A DNA stretch of 64,000 bases from Oscillospiraceae bacterium (GTDB lineage: Bacteria; Bacillota; Clostridia; UBA1212; UBA1255), in the NCBI GenBank assembly GCA_015069165.1, contig SVJD01000001.1:57485-121484 (forward strand). Direction: 5' to 3'. A model generated the notes under the pieces. It was not told the origin of the DNA. It saw only the letters and a list, made by a program, of their open reading frames with translations, and did no database searches. This document shows, piece by piece, positions 1 through 16,026 of this stretch. The position numbers and the translations under genes are program-made. Numbering within the stretch: the stretch's first letter is position 1; each line of letters begins with the position of its first letter.

Positions 1-62
1 TTTTCCTCCCGGATATCTTAACGGAGAATAATTCATTTCTAAAACTCCCTTTTTCATCTTCA

Positions 63-977
63 TCATTCCCACAAAACTGTATCAACCACAAAACTTGTTT
101 TATATTCAGTATTGCATGCATCATAAAGAACTACTTCAACCTTCAGTTCCTGGTGCATGTTCGTTCTCTCCCGGATCACTTCACAAAAGCTATCACTTAC
201 CTTGAGGAAGAGTGTTTTTTCGGCCTGACTTTTAGCTGGCAACATAAACGGCGACTTTTCAATCAAAGTAGGAGCTTGTCTGAATTGCGTTTTGTTATCA
301 TCAATATACAGAACGGAGCTTCCTATTTTGCTATCTGAATACATCCATTTAACTGTGACCTTACTAAATACAAAAGAGTTGTCCGTATTATTCACGAAAC
401 TGATAGGAATACGTGCAAACACCTGCTTCACTCGGGATATGTCCACAATACCAATTTCAATTTTATTATTCAAAGACAAGATATCCACATAGAATCTCGT
501 TTTGTAAATTTCCTCGATATCACTTCTAAGTGCACGGAAATTATTCGCGCTCTTTCTAATGTATATATCACCTGCATGAAGACATATTTTATCTTTAAAA
601 GAATAATCTTTTGCTACAACGTATGGCTTTTGAATATTCGAACTTTTTACAATCGCCGCACCGACTCTTTTAGTTTCAATATCAAATTGCTCAATATCTA
701 TTTCGATAAACGGATCGCAATAGGTGCGAATTAATTGGTTGAGGTCTGAAATATCCGGAATGTCTTTTTCTGTTATACCAACAATCTCACGAGTGACATC
801 ACTTACTCCAAAAATAATATACTTGTCTTCCCGCGATGAGGCATTAGCAAAACTAATGATGTCTTTTATAAATTCACTTTTTTTGGCTTCGTGGTAATAC
901 TGCTGCTTAAAATCAACGGTATCGCTCTCAATACCATTTTCAATAAGCTTCGCAATTCTTTTCTGTCTTTGATTCAT
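63..977 (-). CDS. AlbA_2 / Schlafen-core (divergent AAA) domain protein
   Basis: The N-terminus reads ESDTVDFKQQ...FIKDIISFANASSREDKYIIFGVSD, which fits the PF04326 AlbA_2 pattern (E..EFK...IaAFAN..GG.L.iGV.D). It is the last gene of a 4-gene co-directional operon, and its first 12 codons overlap the upstream NUDIX gene. Confidence 0.55.
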   Translation of the reverse strand: MNQRQKRIAKLIENGIESDTVDFKQQYYHEAKKSEFIKDIISFANASSREDKYIIFGVSDVTREIVGITEKDIPDISDLNQLIRTYCDPFIEIDIEQFDIETKRVGAAIVKSSNIQKPYVVAKDYSFKDKICLHAGDIYIRKSANNFRALRSDIEEIYKTRFYVDILSLNNKIEIGIVDISRVKQVFARIPISFVNNTDNSFVFSKVTVKWMYSDSKIGSSVLYIDDNKTQFRQAPTLIEKSPFMLPAKSQAEKTLFLKVSDSFCEVIRERTNMHQELKVEVVLYDACNTEYKTSFVVDTVLWE

Positions 978-1368
978 TAGTTTCTATATCTCCTAATAGT
1001 ACTTTTAAGATTTCCTCATCTGCTGGGCAGAACTCATAGTTCGGTATCTCTCTTGGTGTGATCCATTGAATATCGTTATGTTCCGACATCTGCGGTTCGT
1101 CTTCGACAATGGTGGCATTAAACAATGTTAGATGCACCGTCAAGTCGGGATATTCGTGGACGACGTCCATAAACACGCCGCCGACAGATAGCGTCACGGC
1201 AAGTTCTTCTTGACACTCACGAATAAGCGCCTGTTCTTTTGTTTCTCCCTGCTCAACTTTGCCACCAACAAACTCCCACAGGAGCCCGCGCGCCTTGTGC
1301 GCCGGGCGTTGACAGATCATGAATTTATTGCTCTGCCAAATAAGGGCTGCTACTACTTCGGTTATCAT
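940..1368 (-). CDS. NUDIX hydrolase (MutT-like)
   Basis: A Nudix box is present: GGKVEQGETKEQALIRECQEELAV, matching GX5EX7REUXEEXGU. Its start codon overlaps the stop of the upstream helicase gene by 4 nt (ATGA-type coupling). Confidence 0.75.
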   Translation of the reverse strand: MITEVVAALIWQSNKFMICQRPAHKARGLLWEFVGGKVEQGETKEQALIRECQEELAVTLSVGGVFMDVVHEYPDLTVHLTLFNATIVEDEPQMSEHNDIQWITPREIPNYEFCPADEEILKVLLGDIETNESKTEKNCEAY

Positions 1369-3494
1369 ATTTCCTCAATGCCAATCTTCTTCAAGTATTC
1401 ATAAGTTCCATCGTAGAATTTAGGCAAGCGAGTGCTATCCTCCCAAAATCCACTTGGATTCTTATTGGGATTACCAGCAGGAACACAAATCACCATACCA
1501 GCCCTTGCTCTTGTGAGAAGAACTCGATAAGCATTGAGCATATATTTGATCTGCTCTTGTTTATTCTCAGTATCGGGTATTTTTTCATTCCACGCAGTTT
1601 TACCGTTAAATGTATAATAACGCCATTTTTCGTTATCACATCTCATATCGGCATCCCACAGCACGCAGGTATAATCAAGCTCCAAACCCTGCACCTGAAT
1701 TTCCGTTGCGGCATCTTCAAGATAGTTAGAGGCTCTTGTATCAATTTTGTCTTCAAGGAACCAGTGAACTGCATTCTCATCACCAGAGGGGAGAATGTGT
1801 ATTCCCAACGGTTTGAATCGTGCAGCTTCCTTGGTTACGAGTACGCCTGTACGTTCTGTTCCTCTGACTTTACCATGAAGCCATCTTTTTGCAGTTACCA
1901 TATCTCGTGTTAAGACAATGGGATACCTGTCCTTTATTTCATTGTACAATTCTGCTGCATCAGGATTGAAGGTGAGCAGTGAATGAACAAATGCAGAGAG
2001 TTTTTCGGCTCTGAAGGAGCGTAGAGAAACACCAAGGTGTAAATTTTCCGAATACGTAACGTTTTCGTTTTTCGCCAGCAGTTCGTTAACCTTACCTTCG
2101 GCATATTCCGGCTCTGTAAGCTTTGGAGAAATATATACTTTCCAATGTGGAAATTTGTCATTCAGTGCATTTATCCACTCTGAAATTCCCGCTTCACCGG
2201 TATTGATCTCCTGTCCACCACCTACAAGGCAGACAATAGTTGCCCAGTCCTCTCTCTGATCGAGAGACCATATCAAGAAAGCCGCCTCGGATAATGGAAA
2301 ATTGGGAACCTTCAATTTATTTCCGTATGTACCACCACGTTTTAGATAATCTGCAAGCCTTTTGTGGGTCCACGAGCGCTGCGCCTCGTCAAAAATGGCA
2401 ACGTGCTCCACTTCTCCGTAACCAGATTCTGCGAGTTTCACCGCTTTTTCGGGATCAATTTCCAAAACCCCATTTTCAACAGGATTTTTGATTTTAGCGA
2501 GCATATTATCACGATAGCGGTGGATGATTTGAATAAATTTACCTACCTCTCTGCGAGAATCGGACAGATTTTTCTTTTCGTTTCTATCACGGCATTTTTG
2601 ATGATTATCTTTTGCAAGAGCTTCGGTAAGTACCGCAACCAAAGGACCATTTCCCGAAAGATATACTGCGCCTTCGTCTTCAACAGGAGCGTCATTTCCC
2701 TGATAGGTTTGCTTTACAGCAACATCGAGCCCGACAAGCGTTTTCCCTGCACCGGGGACACCAGTAACGAAGCAAATGCTTTTTTCTCCGTTTGTCTTGC
2801 TTCTTTGTATTACGTCAAGTATGTATTTAATTGTTGTATCAGTTGAAACCTTATCCGCTTCGTGCCTCGTGATATTCTCAACTGAATGACTCTCGTATAA
2901 CGTTTTTGCAGCCTCAACAATAGTCGGCGTGGGTGCATAAGGACTGATAATCCAATCGTTATGAACCGGGAGTTCGCTCGGAAACTTATTCAACACATTT
3001 TCGATCAAAACAGATATCCCTGCTTTTCCGGTAACCAACGGATTTATTACCATGTCGTCATACACCGACATTTGAATAGAGGTGCTGCGATTAGAATAAT
3101 TTGTAGCAACCAAAATGGGAGCGATAACTTTGTCCTCGCTAAATTTGTGGAAGTTTTTCAGATCCAAAGCATAATCCAAAACTTGGTCAATATTAGATTC
3201 GAGAATTTTTGACTCGCCAACCTTAAATTCAAGGCAAAACACAATGCCGCAATAAAGGAGAACAACGTCAATTCTTTTACCGAGTCTCGGTATATCATAT
3301 TCAAAAACTATTTGGCCATTGGCATCACAAAGACTCGAAACCACGTTCTTCATGATTTCAATTTCAGCCTTCCACGCATCTCTTGTCGTGGTTAAAGCTT
3401 CACCGTGATAATTGTCGTCCAATATTCTGTATATAGAATCCGAGTCTGTATCTAAAAATGTTGCGAAATCGCTATTATACAAGCAGCGTGCCAT
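1365..3494 (-). CDS. Mrr-like PD-(D/E)xK nuclease fused to DUF2075 SF1 helicase
   Basis: The N-terminal nuclease motif is ...IDVVLL...CLEFKVG (D-x-n-E-x-K). The central region has Walker A GVPGAGKT and Walker B/DEAQ (IFDEAQ), as in the DUF2075/AAA_30 Schlafen-type helicase. An AAGGAG ribosome-binding site lies 9 nt upstream of the ATG. Confidence 0.65.
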   Translation of the reverse strand: MARCLYNSDFATFLDTDSDSIYRILDDNYHGEALTTTRDAWKAEIEIMKNVVSSLCDANGQIVFEYDIPRLGKRIDVVLLYCGIVFCLEFKVGESKILESNIDQVLDYALDLKNFHKFSEDKVIAPILVATNYSNRSTSIQMSVYDDMVINPLVTGKAGISVLIENVLNKFPSELPVHNDWIISPYAPTPTIVEAAKTLYESHSVENITRHEADKVSTDTTIKYILDVIQRSKTNGEKSICFVTGVPGAGKTLVGLDVAVKQTYQGNDAPVEDEGAVYLSGNGPLVAVLTEALAKDNHQKCRDRNEKKNLSDSRREVGKFIQIIHRYRDNMLAKIKNPVENGVLEIDPEKAVKLAESGYGEVEHVAIFDEAQRSWTHKRLADYLKRGGTYGNKLKVPNFPLSEAAFLIWSLDQREDWATIVCLVGGGQEINTGEAGISEWINALNDKFPHWKVYISPKLTEPEYAEGKVNELLAKNENVTYSENLHLGVSLRSFRAEKLSAFVHSLLTFNPDAAELYNEIKDRYPIVLTRDMVTAKRWLHGKVRGTERTGVLVTKEAARFKPLGIHILPSGDENAVHWFLEDKIDTRASNYLEDAATEIQVQGLELDYTCVLWDADMRCDNEKWRYYTFNGKTAWNEKIPDTENKQEQIKYMLNAYRVLLTRARAGMVICVPAGNPNKNPSGFWEDSTRLPKFYDGTYEYLKKIGIEEI

Positions 3495-3508
3495 AATTTT
3501 TTGCTCCT

Positions 3509-3724
3509 TTACTGATCCTTTTGAGGAACTATTTCAACGATGTCGTCCATAGTACATCCAAGAGCCGAGTAGATCTTCACGAGCACATCGCTTGACACAA
3601 CGGCGCCATCTTTGCCCATCTTGGTGATGGTGGCGATGCTGATGTCGGCTTTTTCGGCGAGTTCTTTCTTTTTCATATCGCGGTCGATCAGAAGTTTAAA
3701 CAATTTCTTATAGCTTGCAGCCAT
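3509..3724 (-). CDS. XRE-family helix-turn-helix transcriptional regulator (72 aa)
   Basis: The HTH_3 domain is MAASYKKLFKLLIDRDMKKKELAEKADISIATITKMGKDG. The six-frame ORF was trimmed to the internal Met, which has a GAGGTG ribosome-binding site 8 nt upstream. A 14-nt gap separates it from the downstream nuclease-helicase gene. Confidence 0.7.
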   Translation of the reverse strand: MAASYKKLFKLLIDRDMKKKELAEKADISIATITKMGKDGAVVSSDVLVKIYSALGCTMDDIVEIVPQKDQ

Positions 3725-3776
3725 TGTATTACACCTCATAAATAGTTTTAGTAAGTATGCTATTTCACCATTTGCC

Positions 3777-3800
3777 ATTATACCACACTCCTCGTCAAAC
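3777..3800 (-). promoter_or_regulatory. Putative extended -10 promoter (TGgTATAAT) for the XRE-nuclease/helicase-NUDIX-AlbA operon
   Basis: The minus strand reads TTTGACGAGGAGTGTGGTATAATGG. It has a TGnTATAAT extended -10 and a short spacer to a TTGACG -35-like hexamer, about 50 nt upstream of the XRE start. Confidence 0.35.
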
Positions 3801-4004
3801 AGCAACAGTTTCCGGCAGAGAAATACTGCGTTTTCAGCATTTGTCGGTTTTTCACCACAAACTGCAGGTGTGCGCATTGCAGAACGCTTTTTCTTTGTTT
3901 ACTGCTGGGCAATTGTTGACTTGAGTGCAGATTTGGCGGGGTGTTTGAATATCTATCTCCGGATTGGCAAAAATAACGTATATCAAACAAGTGGAGGTAG
4001 TGAA

Positions 4005-4666
4005 ATGTTCAAACACGAAAAGATGCTTTTCATCCAGTAGAGGTGGAGAGACCCAACCCGCAGTTTGCGGCGCTTTTGCAGGAACAGTTTGGCGGCGGCA
4101 ACGGCGAGCTGAAGGCGGCGATGCAGTATATGTCCCAGAGCTTTCGAATCAAAGACCCCGAGATCAAGGATCTGTTCCTTGATATTGCGGCGGAGGAGCT
4201 TGGTCACATGGAGATGGTGGCGCAGACCATCAATCTCTTAAACGGTCACGACGTGGACGCAACAACAGTCCCTTGCGGTGAGATCCAATCCCACGTAATT
4301 CTCGGTCTGAATCCGGGACTTATCAACGCTTCGGGTTATTCCTGGACGGCTGATTACGTGACGGTTACGGGTGATCTGTGCGCCGACCTGCTCAGCAACA
4401 TCGCATCCGAACAGCGCGCGAAGGTGGTATATGAATATCTTTACCGCCAGATCGACGACAATAAGGTGCGCGAGACCATTGATTTTCTCTTAAACCGCGA
4501 GGAAGCGCACAATCAAATGTTCCGCGATGCCTTTAACAAGGTGCAGAACTCCAGCTCCAACCGTGATTTCGGTACGACCAAAGCCGCGAAAATGTATTTC
4601 TCCATGTCCGACCCCGGTCCCAACGCATTCGCGACAGGTGATACAAAACCCGTATCTTTCGAATAA
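4005..4666 (+). pseudogene. cotJC: Manganese catalase / CotJC family, interrupted by a 1-nt frameshift near the 5' end
   Basis: ATG 4005, preceded by a GGAGGT ribosome-binding site, encodes MFKHEKMLFIQ*, matching the CotJC N-terminus (MWVYEKKLQYPV). The frame then shifts by -1 in a T4 run (4027-4030). The long ORF from 4043 continues as PVEVERPNPQFAALLQEQFGGGNGELKAAMQYM...EELGHMEMV, with the di-Mn ligand motif. GC is about 60% against a genome average near 40%. Confidence 0.6.
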
Positions 4667-4819: not shown

Positions 4820-5863
4820 TCAATGCGAAATCATCCAATTAACTTGTGTTGGCAATCCCATATGTCTTATATGGTTTTCAAATATTGCTCCTACAGCTTT
4901 TGCCTGATCCAAAAAGGTGTCGCAACTGATTGCTTGACTAGCTAAAAGAGCGCTGATCTGCGTAGGTTCACTTCCATACTGAACCACTTTTGAAGAAGGA
5001 TCTTCACCTTTTTCTACCAAACGATCCAACATACGCTTTCCAGCTTCATTCACCATATCGCTTTTAAGCATATCTTCCAACTGTTTTCGCAGTTCTTCAA
5101 GAGCCATCCATCGCTTGCAAACACTCCAAGCATCTGATTTAACGATTTTTTCCAAATGCCGTTTCATTACACCAACCTTGTGATTTGCATTAAGGTATTG
5201 AACATTATCCGAAAGAGTCAACAGCTCTTGAAATAGTCCATAAAGCTTTGCCCTTTTCCCGTACCACGAAACAACATCTGGTTTGAGAACATTTTCCTTT
5301 GGAATATATATTGTAATACTATCCTGCTCCCGATAATCGTTTGCTCGGTACAACAAAACATTATGCACATAATCATTTAAACATGCATAATAAGCTACTT
5401 GTTCTTTGATATCTACAACAACAAGCAACACCGGTATCGCACTTCCCATACGTTCTACAAGCTTTAGCAGAGGAACGTCCACCACAAATTTTAAAACGGG
5501 AAGTTTCTTTTCTTCTAATTCCTTTTTGGTGTACAACTGTTCTCCAATAGGTTTTATTGTTGCAAATTCAGGATATTCCGTCCCCTTCACCTGAAAGAAA
5601 ACATGTTCTCCCAAAGTAACACAAACCCCATCTTCATGCTCAAACAACTCAAGGTCAATATCTATTCCGTAGTCCGGTTCCATCTTACGTTGTACCCATT
5701 CAATAGGAAGGACCGACTGCAAAAAGAGCAAAGACTTTGCTTCAACAATATGATTGGTATCTCTTATTTTTCCCTCTGCCAAAAAATTACCTGCTTTTCT
5801 AACATGAATCCCAATTCGCTGTTTACACTTTAATATTATATCACAATTTTGCCGAATTTTCAA
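4820..5863 (-). CDS. Hypothetical protein with PD-(D/E)xK-like nuclease motif (DUF4365-like)
   Basis: The motif EPDYGIDIDLELFE...EHVFFQVKG has a D..D..E.K restriction-endonuclease-like core. There is no other recognisable domain. Confidence 0.4.
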   Translation of the reverse strand: MKIRQNCDIILKCKQRIGIHVRKAGNFLAEGKIRDTNHIVEAKSLLFLQSVLPIEWVQRKMEPDYGIDIDLELFEHEDGVCVTLGEHVFFQVKGTEYPEFATIKPIGEQLYTKKELEEKKLPVLKFVVDVPLLKLVERMGSAIPVLLVVVDIKEQVAYYACLNDYVHNVLLYRANDYREQDSITIYIPKENVLKPDVVSWYGKRAKLYGLFQELLTLSDNVQYLNANHKVGVMKRHLEKIVKSDAWSVCKRWMALEELRKQLEDMLKSDMVNEAGKRMLDRLVEKGEDPSSKVVQYGSEPTQISALLASQAISCDTFLDQAKAVGAIFENHIRHMGLPTQVNWMISH

Positions 5864-6046: not shown

Positions 6047-6195
6047 CCACAGTTTATCCCACATCCACGCACGGAGTACACGGAAACAGTGGAGATAAGA
6101 GCGCCGGAAAGGATGTGTTTCCGAGCAGAAAGGGGCGGAAACGGCTAAAAACGAACGGAAACAGGTACTCCGGATTTCTTTGGGAGCAGGATGCC

Positions 6196-6223
6196 GCAGG
6201 TTCAAATCCTGTCATCCCGACCA
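6196..6223 (+). other. tRNA 3'-end fragment: T-arm plus acceptor 3' strand plus CCA, with no matching 5' half
   Basis: The sequence GCAGG-TTCAAAT-CCTGT-CATCCCG-A-CCA mirrors the T-arm and 3' end of the complete tRNA-Leu at 32401-32483 (3 mismatches in 26). No acceptor 5' strand (CGGGATG) or cloverleaf is found upstream. Confidence 0.55.
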
Positions 6224-6445: not shown

Positions 6446-7336
6446 ATGATAACAAATATAGATGTTTTCAATGAAACAATAAAAATTATTAATACAAATG
6501 AATGTTTAAATGTAGAAACAAAAAAAGCAATAAATAATACAGTTATATATGATGAAGGATTTCAATCTATCAAACAACCTGACTGTCAATCTAATGTACG
6601 ATTTGAAGAAAATCTGACACTACTCGCCGCAGAACCGATGGCATTAAATAAAAAAGTTGCCGTTTTAAACTTTGCAAATCCTGTTGAACCTGGTGGAGGG
6701 GTGTTGCGTGGAGCTAACTCACAAGAAGAATATTTATGTCGAGCAAGTAACCTATATCCATGCTTAACTTCAACACAAGCAAAACCATATTACGAACTAC
6801 ATAACAATCTCCTAAAACAAAATAATACCCCCTACTTTCTTTCGACTGATCGTATTATTTATTCAACAAATATTACTGTTATTCGAAAAGATGTAGGATT
6901 TTTTGTAGACAGACCTGATTGTAGAAGCATACAAAGATTTTCAAATAACTGGTACCAAATTGATGTTATTACATGTGCAGCTCCCTATTTTTATAATAAT
7001 ATACCAATATCTGAGGCATTATTGAAAGAACTTCTCAAAAAGCGAATAAAAAACATATTTGAAGTTGCCATTGAAAATGAAATACAAGTTCTTATTCTTG
7101 GCGCCTTTGGATGCGGGGCATTTCATAACCCGCCAATGCTTGTAGCAACCGCGTTTTCTGATGTTTTGCTTGAGAGCCGATATACTAATGCTTTTGAGGA
7201 AGTTATATTTGCAGTAAAAAGAACAGGATTTTTTTGCGAAAATATTGAAGCATTTGAAATCACCTTTTCTGTATTTCCGCCAACAGGCGAATACGTTCTT
7301 AGTGCCGAACGCAACAAGCGTCGCTTTTTTGAGTAA
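6446..7336 (+). CDS. Bacterial-type poly(ADP-ribose) glycohydrolase-like macrodomain protein (DUF2263/TIGR02452)
   Basis: The PARG signature GGG-x6-QEE appears as LNFANPVEPGGGVLRGANSQEEYLCRASNLY. The gene is very AT-rich (about 25% GC). Confidence 0.65.
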   Translation: MITNIDVFNETIKIINTNECLNVETKKAINNTVIYDEGFQSIKQPDCQSNVRFEENLTLLAAEPMALNKKVAVLNFANPVEPGGGVLRGANSQEEYLCRASNLYPCLTSTQAKPYYELHNNLLKQNNTPYFLSTDRIIYSTNITVIRKDVGFFVDRPDCRSIQRFSNNWYQIDVITCAAPYFYNNIPISEALLKELLKKRIKNIFEVAIENEIQVLILGAFGCGAFHNPPMLVATAFSDVLLESRYTNAFEEVIFAVKRTGFFCENIEAFEITFSVFPPTGEYVLSAERNKRRFFE

Positions 7337-10908: not shown

Positions 10909-12450
10909 TTAAATCTTTTTCCAAGTTCTTTTACTGAAAAGAATAATCACGGGCAATATTTCAAGTCTTCCCAGCATCATAGTGAGCGTAAGAATAATTT
11001 TAGAAAAACCACAGTATGCAGCATAAGAAACATATGGTCCTACTGCTTCAAAACCCGGTCCTATATTCGAAATACATGCAAGAGTGGCAGAAAAATTAGT
11101 CGTAAATCCATGAGTTACTTCGTATGAACCGGCATCAGAAACAACTTGCACTGTTTGCCCGTTTGCAGGGTCAAAAGCTAAAAGAAAAATAACCATAAAC
11201 AATATAAAAATATACAATGTAATAAATGCAAATACATCGTTTATTGTTTTTTGTTCTAATGTCTTACCTTCAAATTTAGCTTTTGGTACATATCTTGGAT
11301 TAATTAACTTTCTAATGTTTATATAAAGACCTTTTCCTGCCATTACAAGTCTTGAAAGTTTAATACCGCCGGCAGTTGAACCTGCCATGGCACCTGTAAA
11401 CATAAGAAGATAAAGCACAGTAGTTGCAATCACCGGCCACGCGTTATAATCTGTTGTGGTGTATCCGGTAGTTGTCATTATAGACGAAACTTGGAATAAA
11501 GAATGTCTGAATGCTTCTTCGGTTGTATAATTTTGAGGAAAATTCCGGATTTGTACAATTAAACTAACAAAAATTAAAGCAACGGCTCCGATAATTATAC
11601 CTAAATATGCTTTGAGTTCTTCACTTCTGAAAACATCTTTGATTTTGCCGATAAGAATTAAATAATAAAGACTGAAATTACAACCGAACAGTATTAAAAA
11701 TATCGCCATAACATATTGCGAAAAAGGATTAAATAACTCAATACTTCCCGGAAGAACACCAAATCCTCCTGTACCTGCACAACCGAATGTTGTAACTACG
11801 CTTATAAAAAATTGATCGCTTTCATATCCGGGTATAGGTTTATCCATCATTAAAATGATAACTTCAAGAACAGTCATTCCGCAATAAATCAGATAGAGAA
11901 TTCTTGTAGTTACTTTCATTTTTGACGCAATTTTACCTACTTGAGGTCCGGGGCTTTCTGCACGAAGCAAATGCATAGATGAACCGTCGTTGCTCTCGGG
12001 TATAAAAATAAGCACGAAAACGAGAATACCCATTCCGCCTATCCAGTGAGAAAAACTTCTCCAAAACAGCGAGGAATGTTCAAGTTTTGTTATGTCGGTA
12101 ATAATACTTGCTCCTGTAGTCGTAAATCCTGACATTATTTCAAAACAAGCGTCGATATAATTCGGTATATCACCGTTTAGTACAAAAGGCAATGCACCAA
12201 ATAAAGTCATAATTATCCACACCAAACCTGTGAGTGCAAAGCCTTCCTTTTGATAAAGATTGTTTCTTGTTGGTTTTGGTATTTGGAGTAAAAAACCGAT
12301 AATTGTCAATAATAAAATCGGAATCAGAAAAGATAATTTATATTTAAAAGTTTCATTATAGATAAAACTGACAACCAAAGGAGCAATCATTAGAATTGCC
12401 TCTAAAATCATAATTTTACCTAAAATTTTACCTAATTTCCTGTAGTTCAT
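10909..12450 (-). CDS. trkH: Trk/Ktr potassium uptake protein, TrkH family membrane subunit
   Basis: The 513-aa protein is polytopic and has a TrkH-like repeat architecture. It lies immediately downstream of trkA. Confidence 0.8.
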   Translation of the reverse strand: MNYRKLGKILGKIMILEAILMIAPLVVSFIYNETFKYKLSFLIPILLLTIIGFLLQIPKPTRNNLYQKEGFALTGLVWIIMTLFGALPFVLNGDIPNYIDACFEIMSGFTTTGASIITDITKLEHSSLFWRSFSHWIGGMGILVFVLIFIPESNDGSSMHLLRAESPGPQVGKIASKMKVTTRILYLIYCGMTVLEVIILMMDKPIPGYESDQFFISVVTTFGCAGTGGFGVLPGSIELFNPFSQYVMAIFLILFGCNFSLYYLILIGKIKDVFRSEELKAYLGIIIGAVALIFVSLIVQIRNFPQNYTTEEAFRHSLFQVSSIMTTTGYTTTDYNAWPVIATTVLYLLMFTGAMAGSTAGGIKLSRLVMAGKGLYINIRKLINPRYVPKAKFEGKTLEQKTINDVFAFITLYIFILFMVIFLLAFDPANGQTVQVVSDAGSYEVTHGFTTNFSATLACISNIGPGFEAVGPYVSYAAYCGFSKIILTLTMMLGRLEILPVIILFSKRTWKKI

Positions 12451-14472: not shown

Positions 14473-16026
14473 TTAAATTAAATTGATACGTTTTAAAGCT
14501 CTTTCTGCTCTGAGAACGGGGATGTTTTTTGCAAAGATACTTTCCTCATCACGATAATACTCAAAATTAAAAGCGGCATTGTGCAGTTTTTGGTGCAATT
14601 CTTGATATGTTTCATCTTCTGAACCGCATTCTTCCGTGGAAATATCTGTGCCGTACTTGTTATCAAGATGCTCCGAAAGACGAACGAGTTCAGGAATAGC
14701 AGCGTCACCCAAATCATCCATTGCACGCATATCAACGGTTTTTAACGAACCGTCAATATATCTGTTTACGTTGTAACTTGCTATAAGACCATCAATGTTA
14801 ATAACTGACAAAACAGTAAGTAAAACTACACAAACAGAAAAAGATACTGCAACAGCCTTAATGCGTTTTGTAAATTGACATATAAAAATAACTATGAATA
14901 TTGAAGCAATTACTATCATAAACCAGGTGGAATATACTCTTTTGGGTGTAAGACCGTAACTGTCAATGTACATAAGCATTTTTGCAATTGCCGTACTTAT
15001 AAGAACAAACGTACAAATCGCAAATACAATTGATATAATTTTTAGTGTAATTGAACGCTCTGCTACATTTCTTCTCATAAAGAGAACTACTGCAAATATA
15101 ACAAGAAGATTTATCAGAGAAACAATACAAAGTTGGAAAAAGCCCTCCCTTGCAAATTCCGCATAGCTGAATTCATCAGGCAGTGAACCAACAAAACCTG
15201 ATATATAATAATCCCACTGGGAAACAAAAAATATGACATATATAAACACAAGCGGAACTACGGCTGTTATAACGGTTAATTTCGGTGCGATTTTCAAAGA
15301 CTGATATGCCTTTGAACAATCTTCTGCTTTTATGGTTTCTTTGCCTTTGTTTTCAACAGAAGAAGCATACAAGCCGAAAAGATACATTCCTATCGGAATA
15401 GCAAAACCTAAGCTGCCTATGTGTGAAATAATAGTTTTTAAGTCAAAATCTATTATTTTTGCAAGTAAATCCAAGAAATTTGAATCATAAGACAATAAAC
15501 GGATAACAACAATTGTTGGTATTAATGTTAAACCAACGCCGATAAAAATTTTACCTATCATTTTACCGCTGGATTTTGCTTTGCCGGTAAACATTGCCAA
15601 AAACAGTTTCGAGATAGAAGCAAACGGTAAAACTATTATTGCCTTGAAGAAATCGAACAACATAAAATCAGAAAAATCATTTTTTATGTTGTTTCCCAAT
15701 ACTGAATATACAAAGTAGCAATATGCCGCCATTGCATAAGAGAATGTCCAAAAATACAAAAAAGTATTTGTAGAGACTAAAAGTGATACAGAAATGGCAA
15801 TTGCCGAAGCGGCCACAATTGTAGGCCAAGTTCTGAATTTATGTTTTTGTATTTTTAAAAATATTGCCGTAAAAGTAAAAACAGCTACAATAAACAAAAA
15901 ACCGCCTAACGGAAATTCCATAACGGGAAACGCCCTGCAAAAGGCATATCCGGCAAAATAACACAGCCAAGCGAATACAGATTCCGTCAACGAAAATGTT
16001 CTTTTTTCGATTAATTCGTTATTCAT
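14473..16026 (-). CDS. Polytopic membrane protein (hypothetical, DUF4153-like)
   Basis: The 517-aa protein has more than 10 hydrophobic helices. Confidence 0.35.
   Translation of the reverse strand: MNNELIEKRTFSLTESVFAWLCYFAGYAFCRAFPVMEFPLGGFLFIVAVFTFTAIFLKIQKHKFRTWPTIVAASAIAISVSLLVSTNTFLYFWTFSYAMAAYCYFVYSVLGNNIKNDFSDFMLFDFFKAIIVLPFASISKLFLAMFTGKAKSSGKMIGKIFIGVGLTLIPTIVVIRLLSYDSNFLDLLAKIIDFDLKTIISHIGSLGFAIPIGMYLFGLYASSVENKGKETIKAEDCSKAYQSLKIAPKLTVITAVVPLVFIYVIFFVSQWDYYISGFVGSLPDEFSYAEFAREGFFQLCIVSLINLLVIFAVVLFMRRNVAERSITLKIISIVFAICTFVLISTAIAKMLMYIDSYGLTPKRVYSTWFMIVIASIFIVIFICQFTKRIKAVAVSFSVCVVLLTVLSVINIDGLIASYNVNRYIDGSLKTVDMRAMDDLGDAAIPELVRLSEHLDNKYGTDISTEECGSEDETYQELHQKLHNAAFNFEYYRDEESIFAKNIPVLRAERALKRINLI

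Follow-up and report, generated by a model that had tools for sequence, protein, structure and literature searches.

Nhi of S. epidermidis (SERP2475), the 'Nhi-like' proteins (Millman et al. 2022) and AbiO of lactococci are nuclease-helicases in which a PD-(D/E)xK nuclease at the N-terminus and a DUF2075/SLFN-group-3-type SF1 helicase at the C-terminus share one polypeptide. Domain architecture and defence-island location have been described for Nhi and AbiO, as has the mechanism of Nhi (bioRxiv 10.1101/776245, 10.1101/2022.05.11.491447, PMC13064643). Bacterial Schlafens with sensor domains have also been experimentally characterised (PMC13056530, PMC13462974). RorSlfn5/pSlfn5, a single-gene system of Enterobacterales, starts with a Schlafen nuclease domain whose Ex4(E/D)xK motif lies around residue 15-25 and ends in a faster-diverging Ig-like beta-sandwich (PMC13056530). 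Besides CbCash, many Schlafens that carry unknown C-terminal domains and are encoded beside restriction-modification genes have been reported as 'Cluster 4' (PMC13462974). PD-lambda-5 is a 'compact RM+Abi' system of an E. coli prophage (PMC9519451).

The locus described here resembles several of these systems in parts. Its helicase gene shares the architecture and the defence-island location of Nhi and AbiO, and its Schlafen gene is comparable to RorSlfn5 and CbCash. As in the eukaryotic group III Schlafens (SLFN5/11/13), homologues of the AlbA_2 core and of the group-3 helicase occur in one array. In contrast to SLFN5/11/13, they are separate polypeptides in reversed order with a NUDIX gene in between, and the helicase has a PD-(D/E)xK nuclease in addition. 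Across genomes the two genes are distributed independently of each other.

Gene array and nuclease-helicase

The window (the whole stretch of 64,000 nucleotides that was analysed) contains four co-directional genes on the minus strand in the order XRE, nuclease-DUF2075 helicase, NUDIX and AlbA_2/Schlafen. The original prediction had described these reading frames correctly, including the 14-nt gap and the overlaps of 4 and 38 nt at the junctions, and its domain calls agree with Pfam (HTH_26, DUF2075, NUDIX_4 and SLFN_AlbA_2). The array extends beyond position 63 into a gene for a D12-class (Dam-like) N6-adenine DNA methyltransferase, of which only the 5' end (1..36, minus strand, start MNYSPLRYPGGK) lies inside the window edge. 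A promoter-like site was read by eye about 53 nt ahead of the XRE start codon (3772..3806, minus strand; TTGCTG, a 17-nt spacer and the extended -10 element TGgTATAAT). It is omitted by a consensus promoter scan and its -35 hexamer fits at 3 of 6 positions only, so its function as a promoter is putative. No other promoter-like site and no convincing terminator were found within the array, and the proposed single transcript is likely. The housekeeping-like TipAS and peptide deformylase genes further downstream are packed equally tightly, so that tight packing is uninformative at this locus.

The first gene (3724..3509, minus strand) encodes an HTH_26 protein of 71 aa (Pfam 5.8e-15). A longer reading frame of 122 aa is unlikely; the orthologues comprise 70-71 aa. 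Homologues of the XRE gene were found directly upstream of the helicase gene in 19 of 74 loci, and a gene of the HTH_26 type is likewise found ahead of a helicase lineage of just 43% identity (L109). The XRE protein is probably the cognate regulator of the helicase gene.

The second gene (3494..1365, minus strand) encodes a protein of 709 aa. Its C-terminal part (1365..2783) matches SLFN-g3_helicase/DUF2075 (PF09848, 1.2e-64, aa 238-672), and the predicted Walker A motif GVPGAGKT (aa 245-252) and DEAQ (aa 369-372) were recovered together with a TRAR motif at aa 661-664. For the N-terminal domain (2790..3494, aa 1-235) the PD-(D/E)xK assignment was correct. The proposed Mrr type was not supported, as an Mrr_cat signal was absent and NERD was the nearest family. 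Residues E65, D76, E89-x-K91 and Q104 are invariant across 24 homologues with 34-53% identity, among which Pfam detects NERD in 8 of 24 and also CoiA_nuc, HSDR_N and PDDEXK_1/9. The AlphaFold model of this nuclease was poor (pLDDT 39.5) and was left unused.

Judged from its domain order, the architecture is that of the stand-alone Nhi/AbiO nuclease-helicases. Unlike them, the protein shows no significant sequence membership: the PADLOC AbiO profile covers aa 41-265 (E 1.4e-4), the Nhi model matches the Walker A region only (E 0.0044), and the full-length protein belongs to a separate candidate family, PDC-S41 (801 bits). A further difference from Nhi/AbiO is the XRE gene often present upstream. 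The helicase search yielded at least 8000 candidates, and distribution counts were taken from 80 species genomes, across which the helicase is unusually conserved (78-97% identity).

The Schlafen gene and its cassette

The AlbA_2/Schlafen gene (977..63, minus strand) encodes 304 aa and is classified by PADLOC as PDC-S50. Its AlbA_2 nuclease domain (498..977, aa 1-160) matches SLFN_AlbA_2 (PF04326, 6.4e-19, aa 17-147), and in Foldseek it matches SLFN13 (5yd0). In phmmer the protein aligns with CbCash (9ylu, 6.3e-7), placing E17-x4-D22-x-K24 on the CbCash catalytic triad (PMC13462974). Among 24 homologues E17 and K24 do not vary, and D22 shows at least 90% conservation. Unlike CbCash, the locus comprises neither Csx15 nor a cyclic-oligoadenylate sensor or CRISPR context.

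In the AlphaFold2 model (pLDDT 91) the C-terminal region (aa ~165-304; 63..485 including the stop codon) is almost wholly beta. Its top Foldseek matches in the PDB are Ig-like sandwiches (the KirBac C-domain, TRAP, transglutaminase, Spo0M and arrestin). Sequence divergence in this Ig-like/arrestin-like domain outpaces that in the nuclease domain (mean identity 39% vs 59%), and the domain is a candidate sensor. It is likened to the RorSlfn5 domain by architecture as described (PMC13056530). Unlike the RorSlfn5 gene, the Schlafen gene heads a conserved four-gene block.

The constant partners of the Schlafen gene lie past the window edge. The methyltransferase gene (positions 10942/10912-11802 of contig L001) matches MethyltransfD12 (2.4e-25), and its FVGGGG and DPPY motifs are intact. 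It is followed on the same contig by genes for a DUF87/HerA-like ATPase (650 aa) and a zinc-ribbon protein of 462 aa. These four genes form a 5.15-kb cassette of low GC content (35.3%, vs 42.8% for XRE-helicase-NUDIX and 42.9% downstream), in agreement with the compositional mosaic noticed before. The methyltransferase matches the PADLOC profile PD-Lambda-5_B with 367 bits; differing from PD-lambda-5, a PD-Lambda-5_A match is absent among the proteins here. The ATPase resembles those of HerA-effector complexes, its best solved relatives being TdpA (8wet, 2.7e-20) and the HerA subunits of defence complexes. Its N-terminal region may be a nuclease, as suggested by a weak Tox-REase-5 match (E 0.015). 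For the 462-aa protein no homologue of known function was detected. This HerA partner is unannotated and differs from Sir2, DUF4297 and any recognisable NurA, in contrast to the partners in Sir2-HerA and DUF4297-HerA. The restriction-modification neighbours recall the 'Cluster 4' Schlafens by description only (PMC13462974).

Nine genomic contexts contain the cassette as a block, and in five of them no DUF2075 helicase is present. In L092, L112, L093, L095 and L098 the AlbA_2 homologues (60, 48, 46, 39 and 37% identical, respectively) are followed by genes for a D12 methyltransferase, DUF87 and a ~460-aa protein, and DUF2075 and NUDIX are absent nearby. AlbA_2 identity tracks that of the methyltransferase, the HerA-like ATPase and the 462-aa protein (Spearman 0.90-0.92); no such co-variation was seen with the helicase.

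The NUDIX gene and the insertion slot

The NUDIX gene (1368..940, minus strand) encodes 142 aa (NUDIX_4, 4.5e-23), and its Nudix box is intact. The nearest NCBIfam models, NudG and MutT, both score under the cut-off, and PADLOC assigns the protein to PDC-S07 (148.6 bits). By analogy it would be a MutT/NudG-like (d)NTP pyrophosphohydrolase.

In the closest relatives devoid of the cassette, XRE-helicase-NUDIX abuts TipAS directly. In blastn comparisons with these genomes homology ends within the NUDIX gene at L001 9968, corresponding to window position 1010, and restarts at TipAS (15159-15168). The last ~23 NUDIX codons (window ~1010-940) are junction-specific, and the C-terminal tail is variable beyond FCPADEEIL. 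At the 'empty' sites L106-108 NUDIX and TipAS overlap by 4 nt. Elsewhere other cargo occupies this slot: PRTase-CE with a reverse transcriptase in L101, and a TIR protein in L104. The 38-nt overlap of NUDIX and AlbA_2 is a cassette-insertion junction in the variable NUDIX tail. The NUDIX gene behaves like a backbone gene flanking an insertion slot and is a facultative neighbour of the helicase; the conserved backbone would read XRE-helicase-NUDIX-[slot]-TipAS...peptide deformylase.

One system or separate modules

The original prediction regarded XRE, nuclease-helicase, NUDIX and AlbA_2 as one 'split Schlafen' system in which NUDIX may process a signal. On such a reading the helicase would sense nucleic acid and control the Schlafen nuclease as in SLFN11/13. 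Both Schlafen modules are indeed present as homologues, the genes are tightly packed and probably co-transcribed, and helicase and AlbA_2 are also neighbours in L019, L023 and L109, with helicases of 85, 83 and 43% identity. All three of these loci lack NUDIX, however, and AlbA_2 is absent from 77 of the 80 helicase loci: the cassette occurs in L019 and L023 only, and the AlbA_2 protein of L077 is unrelated. Five of the nine cassette contexts lack the helicase. Moreover, the genes with which AlbA_2 co-occurs and co-diverges are those of the methyltransferase, HerA and the 462-aa protein, and not the helicase gene; the AlbA_2 family is small (52 clusters vs at least 8000 helicase candidates), the 38-nt overlap is an insertion junction with a step in GC content, and Nhi and the characterised bacterial Schlafens are each single-gene systems (PMC13056530, PMC13552941, 10.1101/776245). 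We consider the joint system improbable. An integrated system spanning the whole run of seven genes that begins with XRE and ends with the 462-aa protein would accord with their shared direction and short junctions and with the NUDIX-cassette junction kept in the related contig L089 (88.5% DNA identity). The full set is confined to the window's own lineage (L001-L008, L089), each sub-block is found alone elsewhere, and the packing carries no information, being equally tight at TipAS and peptide deformylase. This reading is exceedingly improbable.

A two-gene system of helicase and NUDIX, with or without XRE, in which NUDIX would, for example, hydrolyse modified or excess (d)NTPs set free or detected in the course of helicase-nuclease action, or buffer toxicity, is rather unlikely. 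NUDIX is the commonest helicase neighbour (in 20 of 80 loci it follows directly, mostly overlapping by 4 nt), the MAGs that show the pairing are assigned to several phyla, and in L081 it involves a NUDIX lineage of only 34% identity, which could indicate a functional link; the PDC-S07 type is also a PADLOC defence candidate. Against this, about two thirds of the helicase loci, distant plasmid copies included, lack NUDIX inside 10 kb, L104 retains NUDIX in the same backbone without the helicase, and unrelated cargo lies exactly between both genes in L015, L018, L029, L032 and L050. NUDIX overlaps a following TipAS or TIR gene alike, so tight junctions are general to the array, and enrichment in islands is expected of any hotspot-flanking gene.

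From the gene content, motifs, modular distribution and insertion boundaries we regard the four genes as probably belonging to separate anti-phage modules placed side by side. The suspected phage-defence setting is likely. Of the 9 distinct cassette contexts, 4 have the helicase gene immediately ahead of the cassette (the window, L019, L023 and L109); two of these 4 came from searching with the helicase. This exceeds what a casual neighbour would suggest, and the two modules may cooperate facultatively. The copy of the cassette in the window no longer has an upstream intergenic region of its own and must therefore rely for expression on read-through of XRE/helicase/NUDIX transcription, a coupling at least in regulation.

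We infer the biochemical activities and the division of labour by analogy. Module 1 would consist of XRE and the single-polypeptide NERD-like nuclease-DUF2075 helicase, which, like Nhi/AbiO, may act alone as sensor and effector and unwind and degrade phage replication intermediates, with its expression controlled by the XRE protein. Module 2 would be the separately acquired cassette starting at the AlbA_2 gene, most likely a methylation-based restriction module coupled to an abortive-infection Schlafen nuclease. Here the Dam-type m6A methyltransferase would mark self, HerA and its 462-aa partner would act on unmarked DNA, and the Schlafen protein would be a prokaryotic tRNase-type nuclease fused to an Ig-like sensor. 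The combination of modification enzyme, ATPase-driven effector and abortive nuclease would follow the overall logic of PD-lambda-5 and HerA complexes.

The earlier statement that the locus matches no named defence system does not hold for its parts, as PADLOC files three of the proteins separately and both the helicase architecture and sensor-domain Schlafens have described counterparts. The four-gene Schlafen-methyltransferase-HerA cassette itself is uncharacterised; each part is of a catalogued or recently characterised kind. The region is likely part of a defence hotspot on the chromosome of a gut/rumen Clostridia bacterium, with independent modules stacked head to tail.

Gene layout and surroundings of the array

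The array begins with four open reading frames, all on the minus strand. They encode a 71-aa XRE/HTH_26 protein (3724..3509; Pfam HTH_26, 5.8e-15), a 709-aa nuclease-helicase (3494..1365; Pfam SLFN-g3_helicase, DUF2075, PF09848, 1.2e-64, residues 238-672), a 142-aa NUDIX protein (1368..940; Pfam NUDIX_4, 4.5e-23) and a 304-aa AlbA_2 protein (977..63; Pfam SLFN_AlbA_2, PF04326, 6.4e-19, residues 17-147). The reading frames and their junctions, a 14-nt gap followed by overlaps of 4 nt and 38 nt, were as the original prediction had described them, and the Pfam scan upheld its domain calls for all four genes. A promoter-like sequence, TTGCTG-17-TGgTATAAT, was read by eye approximately 53 nt upstream of the XRE gene, and by analogy the XRE protein most likely controls transcription of the array. 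A consensus scan revealed no convincing terminator within the array. Both the promoter and the terminator scans gave counts at background level and were uninformative either way on internal transcription signals. The genes for TipAS, peptide deformylase and PNPOx further downstream are packed equally tightly. Thus, tight packing characterises the array as a whole and does not single out one system. The array became an operon by accretion.

Two further conflict-type genes, neither of them shared with the loci of the closest relatives, are located just upstream of the array. They encode a DUF4365 protein (4820-5863, minus strand; PD-(D/E)xK-like, with a weak match to PADLOC PDC-M02A) and a microbial PARG-like/TIGR02452 macro-domain protein (6446-7336, plus strand). 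The 3'-end of a tRNA, consisting of T-arm and acceptor end (...GCAGGTTCAAATCCTGTCATCCCGACCA), was located at 6185-6222 on the plus strand, where neither ARAGORN nor Rfam detected a complete tRNA. This fragment may be what is left of an attachment site, marking a former integration boundary of the island. A 207-aa open reading frame of the Mn-catalase family (4043-4666, plus strand) covers only positions 15-224 of the 284 profile positions and lies at a local GC peak of 52%. It could represent a truncated gene or a short form.

The nuclease-helicase family

The nuclease-helicase carries a Walker A motif (GVPGAGKT) at residues 245-252 and DEAQ at residues 369-372, and thereby shows the C-terminal DUF2075 SF1 helicase with Walker A and B motifs that is typical of Nhi and AbiO. 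Residues 1-235 gave no direct Pfam match. An alignment of 24 family members (34-53% identity) revealed E65, D76, E89, K91 and Q104 as invariant, which corresponds to the PD-(D/E)xK constellation. Thus, the N-terminal nuclease of the Nhi/AbiO architecture is likewise present with intact catalytic residues. When the 24 members were scanned singly, eight matched NERD, and matches to CoiA_nuc, HSDR_N, PDDEXK_1 and PDDEXK_9 occurred among others. The fusion of a nuclease to a DUF2075 helicase had been predicted correctly, but its nuclease is NERD-like and not of the Mrr type; the Mrr_cat identity was dropped because it was unsupported in every scan. An AlphaFold2 model of the N-terminal domain, built from a shallow alignment (87-99% identity), reached a pLDDT of 39.5 and was discarded. 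The profile of this domain retrieved only coiled-coil noise from the PDB sequences, and a phmmer search of the PDB with the full protein gave no match.

An exhaustive search of cluster representatives yielded 2212 related clusters. With lengths of 645-830 aa among the full-length relatives, the two-domain architecture is stable. The PADLOC profile of AbiO aligned partially, to residues 41-265 (E 1.4e-4), and that of Nhi over 31 residues only (E 0.0044), while the single-gene PADLOC candidate PDC-S41 matched over the full length with 801 bits. Consequently, the protein shares with Nhi and AbiO the arrangement of nuclease and helicase on one polypeptide but belongs to a different sequence family. 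A literature search for PDC-S41 found no publication. AbiO combines a PD-(D/E)xK domain with an SF1B helicase containing a Schlafen-group-3-like helicase domain (PMC13064643), and the 'Nhi-like' protein of Millman et al. also has the Nhi architecture (10.1101/2022.05.11.491447). Nhi itself acts alone and needs both its nuclease and its helicase activity; phage replication intermediates were proposed as the target of degradation (10.1101/776245). By its architecture, the nuclease-helicase of the array would most likely be an autonomous sensor and effector of the Nhi type acting on phage DNA intermediates.

A scan in which a single genome represented each species found relatives of the helicase in 331 genomes, and the neighbours in the best 80 of these were tabulated by tblastn and clustering of open reading frames. 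The best 80 belong mostly to Clostridia; a few metagenome-assembled genomes among them were assigned to Melainabacteria, Elusimicrobia (Elusimicrobiaceae) and Bacilli, assignments in which binning errors are possible. With 78-97% amino acid identity across these 80 species-level genomes, amid hypervariable flanks, the helicase shows more conservation than is usual among defence genes. This suggests either that it spread widely by horizontal transfer in recent times or that it is under strong constraint, with contamination of metagenome-assembled genomes as a possible contribution. A scan of viral contigs revealed no relatives of the helicase. Plasmids contained only distant homologues in a tblastn search (≤41% identity), and the one from a B. 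cereus plasmid is a solitary gene.

A NUDIX gene directly follows the helicase gene in 20 of the 80 loci. In another six (L015, L018, L029, L032, L050, L082) it lies within 10 kb, set apart by other cargo. An XRE homologue is found just upstream of the helicase in 19 of 74 informative loci. AlbA_2 is present in only three of the 80, two of which (L019, L023) carry the gene together with its complete downstream block of methyltransferase, HerA-like ATPase and 462-aa protein, and without NUDIX. The remaining neighbours are hypervariable and of the defence-island type: type I restriction-modification (R-M) systems, GmrSD-like and SIR2-like proteins, integrases, recombinases and Fic proteins. A phage-defence context, as predicted, is likely.

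The Schlafen cassette and its insertion slot

The window's own contig beyond the window edge (L001) was retrieved by exact-match look-up of the AlbA_2 protein; window coordinates equal 10978 minus the L001 coordinate. Directly past the AlbA_2 stop codon, at window position 36, starts an open reading frame opening with MNYSPLRYPGGK. On L001 the genes following AlbA_2 encode a D12-class methyltransferase, a 650-aa DUF87/HerA-like ATPase, a 462-aa protein, TipAS, peptide deformylase and PNPOx. The methyltransferase matched Pfam PF02086 (2.4e-25) and PADLOC PD-Lambda-5_B (367 bits) and contains intact FVGGGG and DPPY motifs. Judged by these signatures it is a D12-class m6A enzyme and predicted to be active. 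The best solved relatives of the HerA-like ATPase are TdpA (8wet, 2.7e-20) and HerA subunits of defence complexes, and its N-terminal region gave only a weak match to Tox-REase-5 (E 0.015), the one hint of a restriction nuclease in the cassette. A literature search for TdpA/TdpB returned unrelated papers only. For the 462-aa protein (L001 13763-15151) no relatives were detected in Pfam, PADLOC or the PDB sequences; conserved in it are a zinc-ribbon of the pattern CPx(2-3)C...CPxCG and an invariant motif, SSTTFGAETYYGQDFI. Some of its motifs resemble (I/V)DS and INGPL, but a NurA-like identity is not claimed here, as no profile match supported it.

The AlbA_2 protein aligned to CbCash (PDB 9ylu) with an E-value of 6.3e-7, and its residues E17, D22 and K24 fall on the experimentally defined catalytic triad of CbCash (PMC13462974). 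The pattern E17-x4-D22-x-K24 is conserved across the AlbA_2 family and agrees with the Ex4(E/D)xK signature of the Schlafen core. An AlphaFold2 model (pLDDT 91) exhibited a Schlafen-type N-domain matching SLFN13, followed by a C-terminal beta-sandwich at residues ~165-304, so that the PF04326 domain is joined to a non-nuclease domain. The top Foldseek matches of this sandwich in the PDB were Ig-like or arrestin-like domains (E 1e-4 to 1e-3), at low TM-scores of 0.22-0.48. The model thus supports an Ig-like/arrestin-like fold class with no specific relative. At a mean identity of 39%, compared with 59% for the nuclease domain, the C-domain is diverging faster, and RorSlfn5, of the Ig-like class pSlfn5, exhibits the same pattern of a faster-diverging Ig-like C-domain. 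The RorSlfn5 domain recognises a tail-assembly chaperone of the phage and thereby triggers tRNA cleavage (PMC13056530). Stand-alone Schlafens defend in Firmicutes as well (PMC13552941). Schlafens that are associated with R-M genes and carry an unknown C-terminal domain form a large unexplored group, whose regulation has been named an open question (PMC13462974).

Comparison with the closest relatives, whose helicases are 94-97% identical, revealed where the Schlafen genes entered the array. By blastn, XRE, helicase and NUDIX align up to L001 position 9968 (window 1010), and the alignment restarts at TipAS (15159-15168) or at peptide deformylase. These relatives lack the 5.15 kb in between, which extend from the start of AlbA_2 to the stop codon of the gene for the 462-aa protein and align as a block to L019, L092, L093, L098 and the related contig L089. 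The GC content of this cassette (35.3%, against 42.8% upstream and 42.9% downstream) agrees with an insertion. The slot between NUDIX and TipAS (L001 9969-15158, from window 1010 to beyond position 1) holds the Schlafen cassette here. Elsewhere it contains a PRTase-CE gene with a reverse transcriptase (L101-103) or a TIR protein (L104), and it is empty in L106-108, contigs ascertained through NUDIX, where NUDIX overlaps TipAS by 4 nt. The slot junctions fall on gene boundaries. Since the C-terminal tail of NUDIX past FCPADEEIL varies from locus to locus, the junction itself accounts for the 38-nt overlap with AlbA_2, which is no evidence of translational coupling. Homology to the other cassette copies sets in only near the start codon of AlbA_2; the cassette in the window therefore lacks a native intergenic region upstream, and it is probably expressed by read-through.

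A second slot, between helicase stop and NUDIX start, carries other cargo in L015, L018, L029, L032 and L050, namely a four-gene block of large proteins, a 1166-aa protein, a DUF262/GmrSD-like pair, and a MazG-like gene with a 755-aa protein. In L104 a LlaJI-type R-M system takes the place of the helicase, so NUDIX occurs there without the helicase. The nearest NCBIfam models of the NUDIX protein, NudG (99.9 bits, cut-off 156) and MutT (84.2 bits, cut-off 97.9), both scored below cut-off, and PADLOC PDC-S07 matched with 148.6 bits. The Nudix box GGKVEQGETKEQALIRECQEELAV is intact save for the final G (consensus GX5EX7REUXEEXGU). NUDIX may be a house-cleaning enzyme of the backbone or a facultative accessory.

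NikA-like, relaxase and ParB_N genes follow the Schlafen cassette in two contexts (L092 13273-16899; L109 14496-16915), so the cassette may be carried by an integrative mobilisable element. In L112 (5256-7703) the cassette copy is preceded by a second D12 methyltransferase beside an AAA_15/AAA_21 ATPase, which together may be another methyltransferase-ATPase defence pair.

Assortment of the genes and relation to group III Schlafens

The original prediction had read XRE, helicase, NUDIX and AlbA_2 as one functional unit, a split counterpart of the group III Schlafens. These proteins (SLFN11/13) carry the core, with the nuclease N-terminal, and the group-3 helicase on one polypeptide. In the array, by comparison, the two modules are separate genes, the helicase lies upstream with NUDIX in between, and the helicase has a PD-(D/E)xK domain of its own. 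The distribution of the genes argues against one unit as well: 77 of the 80 helicase loci lack AlbA_2, and the AlbA_2 family is small (52 clusters, compared with at least 8000 helicase candidates at E ≤ 1e-10). A scan of metagenome contigs with AlbA_2 found three near-identical loci only, and viral contigs scanned with the AlbA_2 alignment contained no relatives. AlbA_2 homologues of 60, 48, 46, 39 and 37% identity (L092, L112, L093, L095 and L098, respectively; the L095 copy is decayed) are each followed by the D12 methyltransferase, the DUF87 ATPase and the ~460-aa protein, with neither DUF2075 nor NUDIX nearby. At 32% identity (L100) the partner is a PHP/AAA_21 protein instead. Identity values of AlbA_2 correlate with those of the methyltransferase, of HerA and of the 462-aa protein (Spearman 0.90-0.92); they do not follow helicase identity in the three loci compared.

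The helicase nevertheless adjoins the cassette repeatedly. In L109-111 (AlbA_2 62% identical) an HTH_26 gene and a DUF2075 protein stand directly upstream, the latter only 43% identical to the helicase of the window. Altogether, five of nine distinct cassette contexts lack the helicase and four have it adjacent, with divergent helicases, in a small sample in which two of the four adjacent cases came from the helicase-based search. Such recurrence in lineages only 43% identical could reflect real facultative cooperation, in which, for example, DNA intermediates of the helicase-nuclease would activate the Schlafen tRNase. The helicase domain of SLFN11 senses ssDNA. If true, this cooperation would make the array a prokaryotic unfused counterpart of SLFN11 and other group III Schlafens, or their precursor in evolution. 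We regard it as quite improbable. Neither the consistent co-occurrence nor the co-divergence of helicase and AlbA_2 expected of a split Schlafen was seen, though their adjacency recurs in four contexts. The Schlafen analogy rests on two independently assorting neighbours. The original interpretation finds partial support: its domain calls and the defence setting stand, but a functional split-Schlafen unit of the four genes is not supported.

Taken as a unit of its own, the cassette would most likely work as follows. The Dam-type methyltransferase would mark self DNA, the HerA-like ATPase might drive an effector complex with the 462-aa protein, as in HerA-effector systems, and the Schlafen, a predicted tRNase, could sense a phage protein or the state of the restriction module through its Ig-like domain. 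As a whole this would correspond to the 'RM+Abi' logic proposed for PD-lambda-5 (PMC9519451). The cassette shares with PD-lambda-5 the PD-Lambda-5_B-type methyltransferase but not the PD-Lambda-5_A partner, for which the Schlafen, HerA-like and 462-aa proteins gave no match.

The earlier view that the gene combination matches no named defence system could not be maintained, as its parts have known relatives (PDC-S41 and the Nhi/AbiO architecture; Schlafens of the CbCash/RorSlfn5 type). The array does not represent a new kind of system; its novelty is an uncharacterised variant, the Schlafen-Dam-HerA-462-aa cassette, together with a catalogued candidate family of nuclease-helicases. The main value of these results is corrective, in that close gene packing in the array is no sign of a functional unit. 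PDC-S41, so far a candidate, emerges as a very abundant family of nuclease-helicases that share the Nhi architecture and are unusually conserved. The well-defined NUDIX-TipAS insertion slot of gut Clostridia exchanges defence cargo and could be mined for new systems. Finally, the conserved four-gene cassette offers a concrete model for the regulation of the many R-M-associated bacterial Schlafens.
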